From positions 14,384,001 through 14,448,000 of the forward strand of contig NC_086097.1 in the NCBI RefSeq assembly GCF_963921235.1: 64,000 nucleotides of DNA. The letters are read 5' to 3'. Made by a program: the position numbers and the translations under genes. Shown piece after piece: positions 682-59,860 of this stretch; position 1 is the first letter of the stretch; every line of letters starts with the position of its first letter. The DNA is from Mobula hypostoma (taxonomy: Eukaryota). The notes under the pieces are model-generated. The model was given only the letters and a program-made list of their open reading frames with translations, searched no databases and was not told where the DNA came from.

Positions 682-1557
682 TCAGGCTTCTGAACCTCCT
701 ACTTGATAGTAACAGTGAGAAAAGGGCATGCCCTGGGTGCTGGAGGTCCTTAATAATAGACGCAGCCTTTCTGAGACACCGCTCCCTAAAGATGTCCTGT
801 GTACTTTGTAGGCTAGTACCAAGATGGAGCTGACTAGATTTACAACCTTCTGCAGCTTCTTTCGGTCCTGTGCAGTAGCCCCTCCATACCAGACAGTGAT
901 GCAGCCTGTCAGAATGCTCTCCATGGTACATCTATTGAAGTTTTTGAGAGTATTTGTTGATGTGCCAAATCTCTTCAAACTCCTAAGCTGTCTTGCCTTC
1001 TTTATAACTACATCGATCTGTTGGGACCAGGTTAGATCCTCAGAGATCCTGATACTCAGGAACTTGAAGCTGCTCACTCTCTCCACTTCTGATCCCTCTA
1101 TGAGGATTGGTGTGTGTTCCTTCGTCTTACCCTTCCTGAAATCCACAATCAGCTCTTTTGTCTTACTGACGTTGAGTGCCAGGTTGTTGCTGTGGTACCA
1201 CTCCACTAGTTGGCATATCTCACTCCTATACGCCCTCTCGTCACCACCTGAGATTCTACCAACAAAGGTTGTATCGTCAGCAAATTTATAGAAGGTGTTT
1301 GAGCTGTACCTAGCCACACAGTCATGTGTATACAGAGAGTAGAACAGTGGGCTAAGCACACACCCCTGAGGTGTGCCAGAGTTGATCGTCAGCAAGGAGG
1401 ATATGTTATCACCAATTCGCCCAGATTGTGGTCTTCCAGTTAGGAAGTCGCGGATCCAATTGCAGAGGGAGCTACAGAGGCCCAGGTTCTGCAACTTCTC
1501 AGTCAGAATTGTGGGAATGATGGTATTAAATGCTGAGCTATAGTTGATGAACAGCAT
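682..1557 (-). pseudogene. Reverse transcriptase fragment of the Rex1/Babar LINE
   Basis: 291-aa ORF with PQGCVLSP and FADD motifs; frameshifted at the C-terminus and interrupted upstream. Confidence 0.88.
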
Positions 1558-2230
1558 CCTGGTCTAGATGTTTGTGTTGTCCAGGTGATCTAAAGCCGTG
1601 TGGAGAGCCATTGAGATTGCGTCTGCCATTAATCTATTGTGGTAATAGGCAAATTGCAGTGGGTCCAGATCCTTGCTGAGGCAGGAGATTAGTCTGGTCG
1701 TATCCAACCTCTCAAAGCATTTCATCACTGTCAATGTGAGCAATACTGGGCGATAGTCATTTAGTCAGCCCACATTATTCTTCTTAGGCACTGGTATAAT
1801 TGTTGCCTTTTTAAAGCAAGTGGGAACTTCCGCCCGTAGGAGTGAGAGGTTGAAAATGTCCTTGAATACTCCTGTCAGTTAGGTGGCACAGGTTTTTAGA
1901 GCCTTACCAGGTACTCCATCGGGAACTTCCGCCTTGCGAGGCTTCACTCTCTTTAAAGATAGTCTAACATAAGCTTCTGAGACAGACATCACAGGATCAT
2001 CAGGTGCAGCAGGGATCTTCACAGCTGTAGTTGTATTCTCCCTTTCAAAGCAGGCATAGAAGGTGTTGAGTTCATCTGGTAGCGAAGCATCACTGCCATT
2101 CATGCTATTGGGTTTCGCTTTGTAAGAAGTAACGTCTTGCAGACCCTGCCAGAGTTGCCAAGCATCCAATGTCGCCCCAACCTCTTTTGAATTTGTCTCT
2201 TCACCCTTGAAATAGCCCTCCACAAATCAT

Positions 2231-31010: not shown

Positions 31011-31284
31011 TGCAATGTAGCTTTGTTTTGGTATTACAAAGACGGTAATTGGTTTATTGTTGTTGCATGAACCAAGATATAGTGAAAAGCTTTTGTCTTC
31101 AGGCCATGCGTACACAAGTACACTGAGGTAGTACAAATGGAAAATCAAGTAGAGCATTACAGTGACAGAAAATGCAGTGTAGGTTGGCAAACCAAGTGTA
31201 AGGGCAATGCCGAGATAGATTGAGAGATCAAGGGTTTATCTTATATAAGAGGTTCGTTCAAGAGTCTTATAACTGATGATCTTG

Positions 31285-31702
31285 CCCGTTACACCACTGG
31301 TGCCTAGGGCAGCAGTGAAGGTCCTCTATCTCTGGCGATATTCAGGGTGCCCATCATCATGTTGGTAGTTTCCTCTTGGCTTTCACTACTGTCAGCCACG
31401 TGAGTCCCAGGTGGAGACTCAGGAATAGCATCATACTCAGATGTAGAAGAATTCTTCATTGCTGTTTCTCTAACAGATTTGCTTTACCAGTCAGGGTTGT
31501 TACCCCAGAACTGAATCCCCGAACCTTGAGGAGTAGTGGACCACTCTTAGTCTGTCCTCTACCTTTTGACCTGTTTGGCATGGATGACCCTGCCAAGAGT
31601 CAAACCATTAAGGCCCTGACTCCAGCTAACATAGCTCTCTGGGTTATTCAGGCATGCAAACATCCAACCCATGAGAATGTTGCGGTCCTCTTGGGGGGAG
31701 TC
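31285..31702 (-). mobile_element. Bipartite non-autonomous RTE-type element (5'UTR plus 3' tail)
   Basis: Reverse-complement homolog of 56321-56740; further pieces at ~54285-54597, ~33345-33432, ~47888-47985. Confidence 0.65.
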
Positions 31703-33602
31703 TAACAACAACAGGGTGGTAACTGTCCTTGGGCCTGGTGGTCATGTTTTCAAATTCAAATCAAATCAAATCAAATTTAAGTTTAATTTCAGCTTTTTGT
31801 ACCTTCTGCCTGATGGGAGGGGAAATAAAAGAGATGGACCAGGATGGGAAAGTCCAGTGATTCTATTGACTGCTTTCCCAAGGCAGGAGATGCAGGTACA
31901 GTCAATACAGGCAAGCAGATTTTTATGATAGACTGAGTGCTTATATCTACAATGAAAAGAGTTCTAATTCTTTTCATAGACTTTGAAACAAATTAAATCG
32001 GTTTATAGTTCTTGCCGATCGATAGGACAAAAAACAAATGGTTCAGTTCTTAATGTACTCAAGCTGTGGTTACTAGAAATCTGAAATAAGGTCAGAAAAA
32101 TACTATATATACTAAGCAGGGGACAACACCTGTGTATTCTATAAAAAAGGTCATCGTCGTGAAGTGCTACACCGCTTCTGCCTGCAACAAATTCCAGCAT
32201 TTTCCACTCTTACTTCTCACCTGTGCCAGCTTAGGTCAGGTGAAAGAACTTCTTTTGGACAGGGCACATGGGTCTTCACCCCTTTACTGGCTTTAGCGTG
32301 AAGTGGACTGACCATATAGTGGTGTACTGAGGAAATGCTAGTTTACCAAAAGGGATGCTGCTCAGACAATGCTAAACTTTTATCTGAGACTGATAGCAAG
32401 ATTCTGTTACATAATTTGAAAAAGGAACAAGCCCTCTCGTGATAAGAGATCTTAATCTCAATTTTAGTCGCATTTTCCCCTCAATTAGTATCCAGAACTA
32501 ATTTTTTCATCTACTAATTCTATCGTTATCTAATATCAGATAAGGTAACAGGTGAGAAGCCATGACCACCAAGCCCAAGGGCAGTTTCCACACTGCTATC
32601 ATCATTTAAGGTGATAGGGTGTCATTTCAAAGGAGATGTGAGGGGCAAGTTTTTTAACACAGAGAGAGTGGTGGGGTGCCTGCATGTGCTGCTTAGAGAG
32701 GTAGTTGAGGCAGATACATTAGGGACTTTTAAGAGATGTTCAGATAGATGATTCAGATACATGAATGTGAGGGAAATGTAAGAATATAGACATTGTGTAG
32801 GCAGAAGAGATTAATTAGGTTGCCCACTTGATTGCTAATTCAATTGGACCACACTATATCGTGGGCCAAAGTACCTGTACCTGTGCTGTACTGTTCTATG
32901 TTCCATGCTTTAACTAATTCTCAGGTTGTGTATGTTTCCAGCTATTCATTGCAGATCCCTGACTGTTCAAGAGCGGAACATCTTAAACAGCTGGACTTTG
33001 CGTGGGGGAGGAGGGATTTCCAGGGTTTTGACCCAACAGCAATGAAAGAATGGCTTTGTAGTTTTAATCAGAATGAATTGCGAATTGAATCCACTAGCTG
33101 TTCGTAATTGTAAGAAATGCAGAAACCAGCATCCTATTTGAAAAGCACTTGGACACACTGAAGAGCCGAGACCAGGTTGTGGGAGAAAATAGTCAGAAAA
33201 TAGTTGTTTTAGTCAGCTAGCTGTGGGAGAAAACGTTAACTGTTGAGAATTGCCGACATGATGATAGTGGCCCATCTGAATGATAATAGATATTCTATGA
33301 GCTATAGGGAATAAAGGACTTAAAACCATCACTCCTTTCTCTCTCTTTTGCCCGTTACACAGCTGGAATTTAGGGCAGCAATGAAGGTCCTCCACTTCTG
33401 GCAGTGTTCACAGCTTCCTTCATCATGTCAGTGAAAATTATTAAGCCAACTAATAAAGCTAAAGGCTAACAAACTCCCTGGTCTTGATGATCTGAATCCA
33501 CTTCCTTTAACTGTAGCCACTTGTTACTTAAAATTTTCCAACATCCCCTGGTTTCTAGAGAGGACCCAAATGAATAAAAAACTCTAAATGTAAATGTTCA
33601 GT

Positions 33603-34708: not shown

Positions 34709-35854
34709 TGTCATGGTCTGGTCCGTGAAGTCCGTATTCCGGTTCACTGTCCGGTCCATCGAACCTTGATCCAGGTTTTCCTGTCTACCCTGTTTCTGTT
34801 CTTGTTGAACTCTAACTGAGGCAGCTGATTCTTGTTGGGGCTGGCTGCATAAATACCTTCAGAGACCAGGGTGTGGTTGCTGGATTGTTCTTGTCCTTAT
34901 TCCTTGTATCCCTTCCTCTGCCTTCTGTTTCCTCGCCTGAAGCCCTGCCTTGTCTTGCTGGAAACTCTCGCCTCACCTGAAGTTCTCGTCTCACCTTGCT
35001 TTGCCAGAAACCTTGCCTCGTCTTGCCATCTTGTCCTGGATCCACCCTGTACCTAGCTCCCTTCCTGTCCCTTGCCTCCGCCCAGGTAAGCCAGGCCGTC
35101 TTGCCGTTACCTGTGGTTGGTTCTGTCCCTTCCTGTCCTATGCCTCCGTCGGGTGGTGATCCGTGCCCTGCCCAGGTGAACTGCGTCCTGCCCCGGAGGA
35201 GCCTGCCTAGCCTCAAGCCTGAAGACTCCAGCCTCCTGCCTAGCCTCAAGCCTGAAGACTCCAGCCTCCTGCCTAACCTCAAGCCTGAAGACTCCAGCCT
35301 CCTGCCTAACCTCAAGCCTGAAGACTCCAGCCTCCTGCCTAGCCTCAAGCCTGAAGACTCCAGCCTCCTGCCTAGCCCCTAGCCTGAAGGCTCCAGCCTC
35401 GTCCTGCCTGCCTGCCAAGCCTCGTTCTTGCCTAGTTCTGGGGTCCGAGCCAGAGGCAAGACCCAGGTACTGGGTCCCTGTCCAGTCTCTGGCTCGGAGT
35501 CCATCCTGCCTTCTATCAAGCCTCAAGCCTGAAGACTCCAGCCTCCTGCCTCCTGCCAAGTCTTGCCTCTAGCCTCAAGCCTGAAGACTCCAGCCTTGTC
35601 CTGCCTGCCTGCCAAGCCTCATACTTTCCTGGTTCTGGGGTCCGAGCCAGATGCAAGACCCAGGTACTGGGTCCTTGTCCAGTCTCTGGCTCGGAGTCCA
35701 AGCCCGGGCTCCTAGCTCTCTTGTCTAGTTCTGTTCCAGGTTCCTGGTTTTCCTGTCCATGTCCTTGCCATCGCCCTGTATCCTAGTCCTGTCCCTAGTA
35801 CTTCAGTGTCTGTGTCTTGCACTTGGGTCCGTCCCCAGCCACCGCCGTATGAGA
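34709..35854. mobile_element. Solo LTR (Gypsy-like) with internal tandem repeats
   Basis: Termini TGTCAT...ATGAGA (one mismatch from a perfect TGTCAT/ATGACA repeat), exact 5-bp TSD tactg (34704-34708, 35855-35859), TATA-like cataaata near 34848; interrupts a Rex1 3' end. Confidence 0.85.
35203..35400. repeat. 33-bp minisatellite (~5-6 copies) inside the LTR
   Basis: Unit ctagcctcaagcctgaagactccagcctcctgc; extra copies at ~35520-35595; ~130-bp duplication 35380-35503 vs 35570-35700. Confidence 0.95.
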
Positions 35855-46890: not shown

Positions 46891-48553
46891 TTATCCTGGG
46901 AAAAAGTCTCTGGCTTTCCAGTCAGTCTGAGCCTCTCATCACTTTTATACACCTCTGTCAAGCCACTTCTCATCCTCCTTCACTCCAGATAGAAAACCCC
47001 TAGTTTGCTCAGTGTCTCCTCATAAGACATGCCTTCCAGTCCAGGCAACATACTGGTCAATCTTCTCTGCACTCTCTCTAAAACTTCCACATCCGTGTGG
47101 TAGGTGTGAAGCAGATCTTACTTTAAAGCCATCATTTGAAGGCATTCAAGTATTAGCCTTCTAATGGTGCCCAATAGAACTTTGAATATCCATTTCAACC
47201 ACCAAACTGGGCCTCAGTTTGATGACATCACCTGGGACAATCCATTCCCTCTGCACCAAAATCTTTGAAATGAGTGGAAACTTCAATTCTTGAGGGTTGC
47301 AGAAAACGATTACAATAATTATGCCCCTATGAGATCAGACAGACATTGTTCACTGCTATATTATTCAGTGAGTAACACCTAGAGCAGAAACATGCTCCTT
47401 TGACATCGTATGTAAAGTTCCCATGGAGTATATAATCCTCCTACTTTAAAAAGGCCTGTAACTTAAATATGTTACTGATAAATACTGAGCCATAGGTATT
47501 ATGTATCCCCTTTCTCAGAGCCCAGTCTCAAGTGAATAATTTGGCATTACTCTATAACAACAGTGCCAGCTATCAAGAGGAGGATTAGTTAATGCAACTT
47601 TAAGTAATTCATCTCTTGATATTCGGCACTATCGTTGCAAAGCTACAGCAAGTGAAGGAAAGACAGGCTAATTGCCTTCATCTCAAGCTGTTGATGTGCC
47701 AAGTTGCTTCGATGGGATACCAAGTCATCCTGCGCCAATTTATTTCATAAACTCTTTACTGTTGGTAAACATCTTTCATCAATGTTAAGTAAATCAATAG
47801 TTCTTCCTCCCTCAGGCCACTCAACATTTTGCTCTCATGATCCTCTCACGTGGATCACTCAAGTCCTCCAGAGAGAGAAGAGATCCTTTTACTTACTGCC
47901 CGTTACACCGCTGACATTTAGGGCAGCAATGAAGGTCCTCCACGTCTGGTGGCGTTGAGAGCTTCCTTCACCGTGTCAGTAGCTTCTAGCAGAGTTTCTG
48001 CAGATGCCGGAACTCTTGAGGAACACACTCAAAATGTTGGAAGAACTCTACAGGTCAGGCAGCATCTATGGAGGCAAATTAACAGTTGATGGTTCAACTG
48101 TTTATTTCCTTCCACAGATGAAGCCTGACCTGTTAAGTTCTTCCAGTATTCTGGGTGTGGTTGCCTGCTCAAGTCCTACCTGCTTTAATCACCAACAACA
48201 TCCAAGTGGCCACCAAGACAGCAATTTTAAATTCAAAAATGTTGATCATTTTGGAGCCTGAAGAACTGAATTTTATTAATATACATGGGAAGCTTTAAGT
48301 CAGTGGAAAGATGAACTTACCCTTATCAGGGGAAAAATGGAAGCTGGTGCTGGTGTCTTGCAAGGGCTACATCAGATATTTTATTTGGAGTCCTCACTGC
48401 CTTTATATTGGGACAGTATATCAAACAACTCTCGATGGTTGGACAGGTTTCTAAGAACTTGGTATCTTTAACATAATGACATTTCCCCAAGAGATTTCAC
48501 AGGATTTGATCATCAGAGAAAACCATGATACCAACCTTTCTGGGGGGATATTT

Positions 48554-49981: not shown

Positions 49982-51639
49982 CTCTACTTCAAGGACTGTA
50001 CAACTCATGTTCTTAACATTATTTCTCTACTTTTTTTTTGTATTTGCAGAGTTTGTCTGCTTTTGCACATTGGTTGTTTGTCAGTCTTTGTGTGTAGTTT
50101 TTCAGTGATTCTGTTGTTTTTCTTTGTCTACTGTGAATGCACACAAGCAAATGATTCATGTGGTGTCATATATGTACCTTGCAATAAATTTACTCAGAAA
50201 TTTGAAATTCGATCTTGCTCTTCCTCATTATTAGCCAGTAAACTGTTGCATCTATTAGATACCCCATGGTTATGCTGAGGGCAAATTACTTAGTTCACAA
50301 AGAATGTGCTTGAAATTGTTTCACTCAGTCATCTTGAGTGCTTGGATTTCTTTCTAAAAGTGCTCAGTAGTTGCCCGTCAATCCTGACCTCCAGTGCTCT
50401 CTGCATAGATATTGTACATTCTCCCTGTGACTGTGAGAGTTTCCTCTTGGTGATCGGGTTTCTTCCCGCTTCCCAAAGACATCCTGGTGGCTCAAATGCC
50501 CACTGCAAATGAACCCTAATATAGACGATTGATTGAATTGGTGGGAATGCTGAGAAAAATGAGTGGGGGAATGGGAATATTCTGTGAGCTGGCATTGATT
50601 TGAGGTACTGGATGGCCTCATGTGTTGTTTTGAAATATACATGGTAAAGTGGGACTTGTCTGCTTAATCATCACTCGCAGACCCTCCAATCAATAAACTG
50701 GGGTCTGGCCATAATACTAAAGGTAATCAGATTGGCTGTGTTTGAGAGGGAAACCTCCCCTCTCCTCCTTCAAAAATCATTCGTAAACAGCTGACTAACG
50801 TAATTATAGCACTTGAATCAGTGTTAGAAAATCCGGGGTCTGAAATCCCTCAGAAAACTAGATCTGCGTGGTTTTTCCCTTTGTCTAGTGCTCGGTGAAG
50901 ATGTTTGCCTAAGCATAAAGGAAATCTCCGAGTATGTCCCAGACCACAGCTGGGTTTTGTCTGCCAAAGCAGCCCCACCCTAGCATTAGAAGGATTTCTT
51001 GTACTTAGCATGAATTTATACTGTATGTCTTGGTGACTCAGACCTCAGGGTTTTAGTGCACTCGGTCATCTTCTGACTTATACTGCCACTGTTACGTTGA
51101 TGTACACTCAAAAGCACTTTGCATTAATGCACAAGTCACAGGAGATATGCAGTCTGTAACAGCAAAGTCCCCTTGCAGCTGGTTAACTGTTTTGGAGCTT
51201 TCCATATAATGTCTGAGGAAGATCTCGATTCTCTTTTACATATATCACCTCAAACCTGAAAAGAAAATCCACGCCAGGCCCACCAGACTCAAAAACAGTT
51301 CCTTTCCCCAAGCAGTAAGGCTGATCAACACCTCCATCCACTAACCCACCCCCCCCACATGCCCCGCCACCACTACTTTATCATTTCCTGTCAACCACTC
51401 CTGTGTCGATGTATATTAGTGGTCTTATGTGTTTATTGTGTTTTATTTTCTATTACCGAGTACTTATTGTGGATTTTTTTGTGCTGCATTGGATCCAGAG
51501 TAATAGTTGTTTTGTTCTTCTTTACACTTATGTACTGGAAATGACATTAAACATTAAATGTCTGAATAGTACAATTGGTTGTGTTTGATTTGCAGATAGC
51601 AGCCCCTCGCCTCTGTAATTTACGTCCATGTAAATATAA

Positions 51640-51857
51640 GAGATTGCCTCTCAAAGTCCAGCCCTACGTCCCCATCGTGAGGGGTGGTAACAGGTCGGCC
51701 AGCCAACAGGGTTCTGCTGAAGCTGGATAGGCCAATTCACCGAACAGTGGACACAGTGGATTACAGAAACTTTGATGAACTCCAACCAGACCATCGAGGA
51801 GATGGGAGGTCACCAATGGCTTCTGCTCGACTGGGAGCTAAGGGCCCAAGAAGAAGA
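51640..51857 (+). mobile_element. Short RTE-type non-autonomous retroposon
   Basis: 3' stem followed by an (aag)n tail, atataa on both flanks, HDV-like fold at the 5' end. Confidence 0.6.
51646..51713 (+). ncRNA. HDV-like self-cleaving ribozyme fold
   Basis: P1 gcctctc/gaggggt (G-U at position 1), P2 agccct/agggtt, P3 acg/cgt, L3 tccccat, P1.1 cc/gg, short P4 gg-tcgg-cc, J4/2 Ccaac; the elements occur in the HDV nested-pseudoknot order. Confidence 0.68.
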
Positions 51858-52689
51858 TATATAATAAATTAGAGCAAGAGGATGTCATTTTGAGACTTCT
51901 CTAACTTATCTGATTATTTCCTTAACCTCGACCCCTAATTCCAGCCTGATCCCTGTCACTCTTAATACCTCTGTAATCCAGAAATCTCTCACAGCTTCCA
52001 CAGCTCTCTGCATGTAGGATTTCAAAAATTTCCAATCCTCTCAACAATTCCTTCTCATCTCAGTCTTAAGCACATCTTGCTTTATCCCAGTTCTGGACTC
52101 CCCCATTAGGGGAAATACCCGTGCGGCATCAATGCTGTCAAACGCCCTCAGATCACATCTCAGCTTTCAGAACCCCAGTGAGTTCAGACACAGTGCAGTG
52201 TATACTTCCAAAGCTACTTAGGTGTGTAGTTTTTGTGGTTGTAAATCTAAAGCAACCTGCTCTGAATTGTCTAGACTGAGATTAAAACCACATATTATGG
52301 GTTGGCGAGGAAAATTGCTTGTGTGCGGATAAAGCTCATTATTGCAAGCTAATGGAATTATCATCATCCTCTGTATAAATGATTTCTGCACAGATTCACC
52401 TGGAGAGTTCAAGTGACCACTGAAAAAAAAACATTCTATCAACACCATTATTCATTTTAATTATAAAAACAAAGACAATGCTTGAAACGGTATTGCAATA
52501 TACCTATACCCTTCCAATGTCTGCTGGTTTCACTTTGTCTCTAATACATCAAATTCCACTGTACAATGCCACCTTTCTATGGTTAATGCAATAAAAATTT
52601 TTTTTTTCATGAGTGAATCACTTTTTAAATTATTTCCAAGTAATTTTGTGTAAATGATAAAATTAGACTGAGAGTTTCTTTTGTGAGTC

Positions 52690-53300: not shown

Positions 53301-56300
53301 TCCCCTAGCTGCCTGACACGTGGATGCACAATTAAACCACTCACCACATTGAAAAGGTACCTCAATGAGTAACTGAAGAGCTGTAACACACAGGATTGTG
53401 AACTAAGAGAAGTGAGATTAACCACTTTTAACCAGTCTGGCCACAATGACTCAAGTAGACTTGCTTCTGTGCTTGATGAGCTGGGACAAGCATTAAAGAA
53501 AACTTGCATTCGGCCGTGGATATGGCTAGGCCCAAAGACAGGATCATAGGCAATGGAGAGGTGATATAAATGGCTCAATTTAATATCAGAGAATGTACAC
53601 AACATACAACCTGAAATTCTTACTCTTCACAGAGCATATCCTGGCTTTTAATTGGAATTAGTGGAAGATCATGCTATGGAGAGTAAACAGGGGAGTTGGA
53701 CCAACCAAGCTGCTTACCCTTGACACTCTACACACTGTCTTAATCTCTCTGGGTTCATGCCAGAGATTCTGGAAGGCATGCCTGCATTTTTAAGCACCTT
53801 AACAAACCACAACAGCTCTGCAATTTCCATAACACATTTTTAAGACCATGGTGTGATAATTGACAGAATTCCTGCTGCCAAATGTTGCCCTTGCCTACAG
53901 AAACAGTGTGAGTGGCATCAAAGCAGATGACAAAAGAAATAACTGAGGCTTATAGAGAATAAGAAGTAATGCAATGAGAAGATGAGATGAGCAATTGGCT
54001 TTGAACATGGAGCCTGGTGAGAAATTCAGTGCATTCACAAACTATCGCCTGGGTAGCTTTCATTTTAGTTGAACTTGCAAGAATTTTCTTCCCTTTACCT
54101 TGCTTCATGGAAAATAGAAGGAACAAAAGAAAACTCGTAAAACAGAGCCAAGGTTTCACGATCATATTTGATTCTAGCATTTAGGTTTGAGTTGGCTATC
54201 TGTTCAGTCCTAATGTGGATGTTGTTGATATGTGTGTGTGTGTATATTTATTTATTTATTCATATATTTATATATATTTCTGCCTGTTGCACTGCTGGCA
54301 TTCAGGGCAGCAATGAAGATCCTCCATCTCTGTCTGTATAGAAGGATTCTTCATTGCTATTTCCATAATAATATTTTTTGACCAATCAGCAGGGTTGTTG
54401 GCCCTGAGCTGAACTGCCGCCCCCCCCCCCACCCGCCAAACCTGGAGGACCACTCTTAGTCTGGCTTTTACTGTGTTTGGCAAAAGTGACCCTACCAAGA
54501 GCCAAAGCACAAAGCCCTGACTCCAGCCAACATACCTCTCCGGGTCACTGAGGCATGCAAAGCTCCAAATGATGATAAGGTTGTGGTCATCTAGGATAGT
54601 TAACATGTGGGACTAAGATTAAAACACCAGGGTATCAATGCAAATTTCCTCACCCTTACACAAGTACTGTATTAAATTTAGTCAATAAAATATTAGAAAA
54701 TTAGAAAAACTAACCTCAACGATGGTATTCACCAAACTCTTGGATTGCTCTGGAAACTCATCTGGTGCACTAACATACCTCAGTGAAGGAAATCTGCTAT
54801 CCCTACCTAGTGCAGGAATGTAATTGACTCATAATTGCAAGCCCTTCAGTTGCATCATGACTTCAATGTTAGGGCCACAGCCATTGAAGGAGCCAGCTCC
54901 CCAGGAGTAATCCAAGATAGGCAATAAATGCAGCCACAGAGACATCCTAAAGAAAACACAAATACAAATCTGGCTGGTGCATTGATTTCCTGTTGAGTTT
55001 GACAGTGAGAAATGAATTATTATTAAACTGAGGTAACAACTAGCAAAGTTCTTTAAACTGTTTATGTGTACAGCAGAAGTAAGTAAACCTTACCACATGC
55101 AATATTACTGGCAGTATGTTGGCAGGCTATAGAAAAAATCCAATGAAAACACAATCTGAGAATGAATTGCAGTCTGTAACATTATTTGAACCCCAGCATT
55201 CTAACTTGCAGCATACTATTGGGTATCTTTCATTATGCAGGACAGTTTCAATAGTGGAAGCTGGAAAAATTTTATTGTGCACATTTTCAGTCTTCTGTGA
55301 CCTTTTTGATGATATAGGCATTTGGACATCTTAATGTGGAAATCTTGTCTCACTGTTGTTTTATCGTTTGAGGTTGTCATTGAAGCTTAGTGGTTAGTAG
55401 GTAGACTTACTTATTTTTAATCAGATTGTTCAGTCTCCAATATTGTGTTTGTGACAGGAAGGTTTAGTCAACCAGTTGAGATAAAACTAAAATTGATGGG
55501 CTTGCAATGCAGGAAGAGATAAATAACCTACATGATTAGTTATATATCCAATAATATTTTAAATTGCCCTACTTTGTATACCTGAGGGCCGAGGGCCGCC
55601 AACTGCAACATAGTAGAGTTTTCCCAGTGCACCTATCCTTTCTATAACGCACTCTCAGGTCAGAAACCTCCTTTTCCTGCCACCTTTGTCTTCATTTCCA
55701 CCCTTAAGTTTTCCTGCCTCTGGGACACACTCTCTTACTTTTGCCATGTTTGATTTTCATGTTTCTGGTGAACCAGATGATTTACTGATACGGGGAAAAG
55801 CTTGTCTGATATAAAAAAAGGGTTTCAGCCATTAGGAAAAGATTACAGGTTATTCCTGGTTGTGATTTTGTTAATCATTCCTTTGGGCACTTATCTCACT
55901 GAAGGCAATGCCCCATAAAGGTGGCATTGCCATCAAGGACCCCCATTACCCAGAATATGCCCTCCTCCCATTGCTACCATCAAGGAGGAGCGACAGGAGT
56001 CTGAAGATGCACACTCAGCGATTCAGGAACAGCTTCTTCCCCTCTGCCATCTGATTTCTGAATGGGCAATGAACCCATGAACACCACCTCAGTACTTTTC
56101 CCTTTCTTTTTGCACGACTTATTTACTTTTTATATAATTCTTAATGCAATTTATAGTTTTTATTATTATGTATTGCAATGTACTGCAGCCACAAAACAAA
56201 TGCTAGTAATATTAAACCTGATTCTGGGGTAAAATGCTCACCATCATCATATCAAGGACAATTAGGAATGGGTCATAAATATTGTCTTTGCCCACAATAC

Positions 56301-56320
56301 CACCACCTTTAATATATAAC

Positions 56321-56740
56321 CACCAAGAGGACCACTACCTTGTCATAGGGTTTGGAGGCTTGCATGCCTCAGTAACCCCAAAAGCTATGTTGTTTGGAGT
56401 CAGGGCTTTATGCTTTGACTTATGGTAGGGTCGCCCATGGCAAACAGGTCAAAGGGTAACAGCCAGACTAAGAGTGGTCCACCGGACCTCCAGGTTCTGG
56501 GGTTCAGCTCAGGGCCAACAACCCTGACCGGTGAAACAAAATCGTTATGGAAACAGAAATGAAGAGTCCTTCTACATCTGAGTGCGATGGTATTCCAGAG
56601 CCTCCACCTGGGACTTGCATGACTAAGAGTAGTGAAAACTGAGAGGAAGCTACTGACAATGAGGAAAGCCCTGGACTCCATTAGAGATGAGGATCTTCAT
56701 TGCTGTCCTAAATGCCAGTGGCATAACAGGCAGTAAGTAA
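56321..56740 (+). mobile_element. Bipartite non-autonomous RTE-type element
   Basis: 5' part (accttgtcatagggtttggaggcttgcatg...agctatgttg...ggtagggtcgcccatggcaaacaggtc) resembles RTE/Expander 5'UTRs; (agta)n tail; no ORF. Confidence 0.68.
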
Positions 56741-59665: not shown

Positions 59666-59860
59666 GGCCGGCTAGTGGCGTAGTGGCATCAGCACCGGAC
59701 TTTGGAGCGAAGGCTCCTGAGTTCGAATCCACCCGGCTCCCTTGCACACTTTCCATCTGTGCTGGGTTGAGCATTGAGCTAGCAACTCTGCCTCGTAAAA
59801 ATAAGAAAGCCTGATAAAGTCCCGATGACTCCACTTGGAGTTAAGGGCTTTCTTCTTCTT
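59666..59860 (+). mobile_element. tRNA-derived SINE with RTE-like body/tail, full length
   Basis: A box tggcgtagtgg, B box gagttcgaatc, (ttc)n tail, exact 10-bp TSD cataatacaa (59656-59665, 59861-59870). A headless relative lies at ~24158-24288. Confidence 0.9.

Follow-up and report, generated by a model that had tools for sequence, protein, structure and literature searches.

A short repeat in Mobula hypostoma that begins with a predicted HDV-like ribozyme: a decayed copy of a probable bipartite non-autonomous RTE-type LINE family

Introduction

What moves a repeat barely longer than its own 5' structure, and what sets the point at which it begins? The question is raised by an insert of 211 bases (51646-51856, + strand) in repeat-rich DNA of Mobula hypostoma with a G+C content of about 42%. 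Positions are those of the window, by which we mean the whole analysed stretch of 64,000 nucleotides of NC_086097.1 (14,384,001 to 14,448,000, forward strand). A first-pass annotation, made from the letters of the sequence, had proposed a complete HDV-like ribozyme fold at the head of a SINE-like retroposon of about 220 bp. The follow-up reported here indicates that the insert very probably belongs to a ribozyme-headed, bipartite non-autonomous family of RTE-type LINE, and that the copy at 51646 is decayed. The element combines both termini of a longer LINE, the interior being deleted, and is not a new class of SINE. Its features are listed in Table 1.

Table 1. Features of the insert and of its predicted ribozyme head, in window coordinates (G1 = G51646).
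Feature	Position	Strand	Details
Candidate left TSD, decayed	51632..51645	+	stops directly before G1
HDV-like ribozyme fold (predicted)	51646..51717	+	descriptor match; pairs kept in four relatives; family 5' ends at 51645-51647
P1, 5' strand	51646..51652	+	pairs with 51679-51685
P2, 5' strand	51658..51665	+	core 51662-65:51708-11; in the family, distal 51658-60:51715-17 with 51661 unpaired
P3 and L3	51666..51678	+	P1.1 formed by C51670/C51671 with G51687/G51686
Short P4	51691..51701	+	51691-93 with 51699-701; one of three pairs intact in this copy
J4/2	51703..51707	+	predicted catalytic C51703, conserved A51706
Rest of LINE 5' UTR and first codons	51718..51797	+	likely start ATG at 51775-77
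LINE 3' end: last RT codons and short 3' UTR	51798..51847	+	frame to stop at 51839-41
(AAG)3 tail	51848..51856	+	contigs end at 51857 after AAG repeats, unrelated flank beyond
Candidate right TSD	51857..51870	+	similarity to left candidate

Copies and boundaries of the family

Contigs of four of 24 runs (species labels A, B, D and G) were aligned to 51540-52080 at 80% likeness, resulting in 1058, 907, 973 and 1104 aligned contigs per run, nearly all of them on 51645-51857, so that the repeat of about 220 bp is borne out by the pile-up. In run X1, which may derive from the window's own source, the summed depth rises from 5.68 in the flanks to 1,403 in the bin with G1, and the element bins range over 1,191-21,970; summed depth is not copy number, and the family probably comprises hundreds to thousands of copies. 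More than half of the X1 contigs (613 of 1058) are less than 90% alike to the window copy, and blastn at word size 7 found no second copy inside the 64-kb window.

In all four runs similarity is lost at G51646 +/-1, and among the loose-end rows listed the top ones fall before 51645-51647, each with 32-56 contigs and a flank agreement of 0.38-0.41. The 5' end of the family coincides with the predicted HDV-like cut site 5' of G51646, as these loose ends support. On the 3' side, 64-86 contigs per run have loose ends behind 51857, where AAG repeats give way to unrelated flank; the expected (aag)n tail is present, with only three AAG units in this copy. The junction at 51797/51798 is common to many copies, since 27-47 contigs continue past 51797 into sequence of the 3' part and 55-69 extend to the left of 51798 into sequence of the 5' part. 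The window copy is missing about 9-10 nt near this junction, and contigs that span it show 3-11 gaps.

The candidate TSD pair is identical at 11 of 14 positions by eye (51632-51645 vs 51857-51870) and the best scripted match is 10/12 (51634-45 vs 51859-70); random pairings were equally good in 76/5000 and 68/5000 cases (p ~0.015), and a TSD around the element is, from these letters, suggestive only. Flank-bearing contigs of X5, X10 and X16, the runs of the other three species, also contain the element, those of X16 covering both flanks (about 92-96% alike), and no empty insertion site was found among the aligned contigs. Since the element stands at the same site in the other three species, the insertion is old.

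The HDV-like fold in relatives and in the family

A degenerate ribozyme-core motif was searched in metagenome, viral and prokaryote contigs. Four metagenome loci (L001-L004) were recovered, all aligning to the head of the element at 70-78% (E 1e-6 to 1e-31), and there were no matches in the viral and none in the prokaryote contigs. Positions 51644-51797 align to L004 at 78% over 155 nt (E 1e-31), and the 5' part matches L001 at 76% over 137 nt.

All the strings that the first-pass annotation had assigned to P1, P2, P3, L3, the P1.1 GG and C51703 are in place. P3 (acg/cgt, 51666-68/51676-78), the 7-nt L3, the GG at 51686-87 and the C at 51703 were read correctly, and P1 (51646-52/51679-85) does have 7 bp with a G-U first pair; a second wobble, U-G at 51649:51682, had gone unmentioned. 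The fold had been called complete, and the named helices do occur in order, but a short P4 that is broken in this copy had been missed. The proposed P2 (51660-65/51708-13) forms 6 bp here, one of them G-U, but its register does not hold in the family and results from two copy-specific changes.

The letters of the majority of copies make this plain. At 51682 the family has A (95% in X1), which gives U-A instead of the U-G of this copy and a family P1 of one G-U and six Watson-Crick pairs. The X1 majority has A at 51661 (90%), C at 51712 (80%) and G at 51717 (89%); the first two break the fifth pair of the 6-bp P2, which is thereby ruled out as the family structure, and the third makes three distal P2 pairs possible. 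The P2 predicted from these letters is 4 bp, a 1x3 loop and 3 bp, and the four relatives agree with it. P4 has 3 bp and a variable 6-nt loop, is paired in 12/12 cells of the four relatives, and also pairs in the family loose-end consensus.

Across five aligned sequences, 99 of 108 helix cells are paired (91.7%) vs 35-47% in slid controls, including 19/20 cells of the P2 core and 13/15 of the distal P2. As 26 columns of the relatives were preselected by the search pattern, pairs with one side beyond it were counted separately in the four relatives, and 24/26 are paired in P1, 15/16 in the P2 core, 11/12 in the distal P2 and 12/12 in P4. C51703 and A51706, both outside the pattern, are invariant in 5/5 sequences, and the loops vary while the stems are kept. 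The pairings were also expected to covary: they are conserved in the relatives, but covariation is not above that of shuffles (500/500, five sequences) and no pair is changed on both sides among the five sequences. The sole double change is in the middle pair of P4, which is A-U in the four relatives vs G-C in the family loose-end consensus, itself unphased.

An HDV descriptor was written with a P1 of 7 bp starting from G, a P3 of 3 bp, the L3 motif, P1.1, C..A in J4/2 and a P2 of 4 or 6 bp. With both strands searched, it matches the window once, at the same 51646 that the first-pass annotation had pointed to, and has no match in any of 100 dinucleotide-shuffled versions of the 64 kb; the descriptor was written with the site known, so the window match is partly by construction and the shuffle rate is the informative figure. 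Among the four relatives it matches L004 alone, L001-L003 carrying mismatches in P1 or P3. The Rfam search suggested in the same annotation returned no ribozyme match to this copy even at E<=10: the window has no match at gathering and four unrelated weak ones at E<=10, and Rfam covers HDV-like ribozymes with a few specific models. The match of the L004 head to HDV-F-prausnitzii coincides with the predicted span and has 27.2 bits (E 0.081), against a gathering score of 44; the L003 head, again over the predicted span, has 18.5 bits to drz-agam-1 (E 6.6, gathering 37). The pseudoknot-free MFE is unremarkable (z = 0.06).

State of the window copy

Compared with the four relatives, this copy has a G-to-A change in L3 at 51674; it has also lost two of three P4 pairs and one distal P2 pair, and has one weakened P1 pair. 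A51674 lies at a CpG site of the relatives and at the position of the conserved L3 G, which we take to be G25 in HDV numbering. The first-pass annotation had suspected that the L3 'ca' was a decayed 'cg', and G does stand there in 4/4 relatives, at a position where the search pattern permitted A or G. Because A51674 removes the L3 U-G reverse wobble, the copy is classed as a decayed fold and not as an active ribozyme; judged by its lesions it has quite probably lost activity or cleaves far more slowly than the ancestral form, and it is likely a fossil. According to PMC3774820, the R2 ribozyme of Nasonia no longer cleaved once this L3 change was made, HDV itself is not fully inactivated by it, and some R2 ribozymes can do without P4.

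Origin from a longer LINE

APE-coding sequence follows the head in both L001 and L004. The L001 head runs into a decayed ORF (RVT_1 E 4e-11; Exo_endo_phos_2 E 1e-4, which is below the cut-off) that aligns with residues 1-737 of P0007 at 64-67% identity, and the space between the head and the APE start of L001 is too short for an ORF1. P0007 is an intact single ORF of 1046 aa on a contig of 3202 nt, with Exo_endo_phos, RVT_1 and DUF6451 domains, and its cluster has 53 members including an Atlantic herring entry. L004 (341-947, - strand) is itself an element of about 610 bp with two ends, consisting of the head, an APE start, an RT end, a related 3' end and an ATC-repeat tail, with a TSD of 13/14 that ends 2 nt before G1. 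Its HDV-like head looks intact, and among natural elements L004 would be the first choice for testing cleavage.

The window copy retains pieces of both ends of such a protein. Positions 51702-25 and 51757-77 translate to pieces of the P0007 N-terminus (E 0.009 in the window), and a frame of the 3' part reads ..VTNGFCSTGS-stop. With the majority letters at 51813, 51821 and 51823 this frame gives INGLCS, as in the C-termini of P0007 and P0008 and near that of L004. For the frame of this copy by itself, an HMM of the C-terminus made from 9 of 120 proteins gave no significant match (E 9.8). At the DNA level the 3' end aligns weakly with L004, since 24 of about 5000 random pieces reached as good a local alignment.

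Because the LINE 5' UTR, the likely start codon and the last codons are retained, "bipartite non-autonomous LINE" is, on the sequences at hand, a better label than SINE. The earlier idea of a ribozyme-headed SINE-like family thus stands as to a multi-copy family with its 5' end at the cut site, but not as to its class. Its further idea that the element needs no Pol III promoter agrees with what was found: there is no tRNA gene in 51300-52200, no match to the A- or B-box consensus in 51646-51857 and no Rfam tRNA, 5S or 7SL head, and a Pol III SINE was rejected as a candidate.

The architecture of the parent LINE is RTE-like, with one ORF, APE then RT, a length of about 3.2 kb and a microsatellite tail, and this architecture, set beside the traits of the clade, suggests that it belongs to RTE. 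PDB matches of the LINE protein were to R2 and L1 only, with similar E-values, and no labelled RTE reference was among them. The autonomous partner was not seen in the DNA of this organism examined here. A search with P0007 found no relatives in viral contigs and one distant relative (29%), L005, in a bacterial MAG; L005 is a decayed LINE RT without a descriptor match and is likely host DNA contaminating that MAG.

Two side observations concern these relatives. The herring entry, named "craniofacial development protein 2-like" (P0121, P0123 and P0127 in the P0007 cluster), is the N-terminal part of this LINE's ORF, and translating the 3' half of the ribozyme yields its first residues. L003 has a C-terminal RT piece (994-1109, - strand; 93% to P0007) inverted directly upstream of its head (1117-1189, + strand), possibly an inversion made at insertion.

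Other repeats in the window

Another short family, about 420 bp long, is present at 31283-31697 (-), 56320-56732 (+) and 54255-54595 (-), with 77% likeness between two of the copies; 3' fragments of it lie at 33332-33432 and 47889-47986. Its head is rich in hairpins and has no HDV descriptor match, the translated 3' part shows a weak likeness to the C-terminus of a LINE protein (HMM E 0.15-2.3), and from these traits the family may be another bipartite LINE derivative. A tandem array of units of about 33 bp, with open repetitive frames on both strands, occupies 35202-35700. Perfect A-box and B-box matches stand 45 nt apart at 59676-59729 (+), likely the head of a tRNA-derived SINE, and 682-2061 (-) holds a decayed LINE reverse transcriptase distant from P0007 (24%, E 7.5e-18).

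Mechanism and alternative readings

For the short element we propose the following cycle. Read-through from a host or neighbouring promoter would transcribe a copy. The ribozyme is predicted to cut 5' of G1, which would free a unit-length RNA with a defined 5' end protected by the fold. The reverse transcriptase and endonuclease of an autonomous relative would then recognise the kept 3' end and the (AAG)n tail, and the RNA would be inserted by target-primed reverse transcription, leaving a TSD, as homology and the known RTE mechanism suggest.

The main rival to release by the ribozyme is that the fold is an inherited relic, kept as a promoter or as a protective structure, with the start at G1 set by an internal promoter or by a stop of the reverse transcriptase or of an exonuclease, and cleavage unneeded for the spread of the family. 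There is precedent in L1Tc and NARTc, whose first 77 nt, known as Pr77, are reported in PMC3383444 to be promoter and HDV-like ribozyme both, and the shortness of the family P2 core (4 bp) and P4 (3 bp) and the lack of covariation would fit a relic as well. However, the family keeps the majority pairing of P1 as well as the predicted catalytic C and the A of J4/2, P4 seems to have been re-paired in the family by its double change, and a promoter role is compatible with cleavage; we regard the relic as unlikely. A far less probable explanation is that the copies are one-off deletions or fragments of full-length LINEs and not a family that moves as a short unit. L004 shows that another deletion form, of about 610 bp, can have the same ends, and many aligned contigs span one part alone and may come from longer elements, but dozens of contigs per run have the identical 51797/51798 junction, several of them reading across it, and the candidate TSD flanks the short unit. 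That the pseudoknot is a chance arrangement within ordinary repeat DNA, as the Rfam result for this copy and the MFE z of 0.06 might suggest, is hardly credible given no descriptor match in 100 shuffled windows, a family 5' boundary at G1 and stems kept in the relatives.

For the parent LINE we add a more tentative suggestion, which we consider doubtful: that the RTE 5' ribozyme is a swappable module and that in the parent the HDV-like ribozyme overlaps the ORF, with the ATG of the P4 loop in frame with the 1046-aa protein. One RNA of 72 bases would then both cut the transcript and start translation. Residues 1-10 of P0007 are the translation of the ribozyme from the P4 loop to P2 (the 3' half of the L004 ribozyme), with the ATG in the loop, and L001 retains the P4-loop ATG frame, interrupted by a single stop ahead of the ATG farther downstream. 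The frame is not kept in L004 and in the window copy, and the P4 loop of the family has no ATG, so the start of P0007 may be a mere longest-ORF call.

Comparison with known systems

No report of this family was found in the literature; Repbase and Dfam, which lay outside the search, may already catalogue it. Five family motifs had no match in the supplement of the Perere-3/Sr3 survey, which thus gave no link to that lineage. In the accessible supplement of PMC5786205, five of six motifs had no match and the sixth was a single 9-mer in an unrelated context, and no element listed there is recognisably this family. The design principle is not new, being known from SIDEs and NARTc. What the family offers is a vertebrate case whose 5' boundary lies on a predicted cut site, with many natural mutants for a survey of structure and function. 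Its unit of about 220 bases likely marks out the smallest set of cis-elements that an RTE protein needs to mobilise an RNA in trans, a point of interest for gene-insertion tools built on RTE (PMC13708176).

The comparisons below follow the accessible parts of the sources cited. The R2 SIDEs of Drosophila (PMC3414825) are alike in joining an HDV-like ribozyme to a LINE 3' end by internal deletion and in moving by TPRT in trans; they differ in being rare, specific to rDNA and dependent on R2 or R1, whereas the present family is dispersed, abundant and tied to an APE-type LINE. NARTc and L1Tc of Trypanosoma cruzi (PMC3383444, PMC5814959) likewise pair a dispersed short element with an APE-type LINE and have an HDV-like head of about 77 nt. 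They belong to the Ingi clade (per PMC5786205) and to another kingdom, and both promoter activity and cleavage are reported for them, whereas our case is made from sequence. The Perere-3 (RTE) element of Schistosoma mansoni has a self-cleaving ribozyme at its 5' end (PMC8501958) and, like P0007, a single-ORF APE-RT of about 3.2 kb (PMC13155389), but its ribozyme is of the twister class (PMC8501958).

Some LINEs and SINEs are reviewed as employing HDV-like ribozymes (PMC6765202). Those of RTE elements (Ruminski et al. 2011, via PMC5786205, PMC3774820 and PMC6765202) mark, as here, precisely where an RTE-type LINE begins at its 5' side, and the roles proposed for them in those three papers are release from co-transcripts and translation. 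The ribozyme described here differs in heading a short non-autonomous derivative in a vertebrate and in its split P2 (4 bp, loop, 3 bp) and 3-bp P4.

The closest counterparts in form are the bipartite elements RTE-N1_Lch and RTE-N2_Lch (262 and 286 bp), RTE-N1_ATr (195 bp), RTESINE1, RTESINE2, MAR4_MD and WALLSI3 (Kojima 2018, PMC5786205), which combine RTE 5' and 3' ends, are 200-300 bp long, and have a microsatellite tail and no tRNA, 5S or 7SL head. Unlike the element at 51646, they come without a mapped ribozyme in the accessible text of that paper. Bipartite non-autonomous LINEs usually retain the LINE 5' end, a habit linked there to the 5' ribozyme, and the proposal in that text that ribozymes explain such exact 5' ends was made with none mapped; a family whose copies begin at a predicted HDV-like cut site fills this small stated gap.
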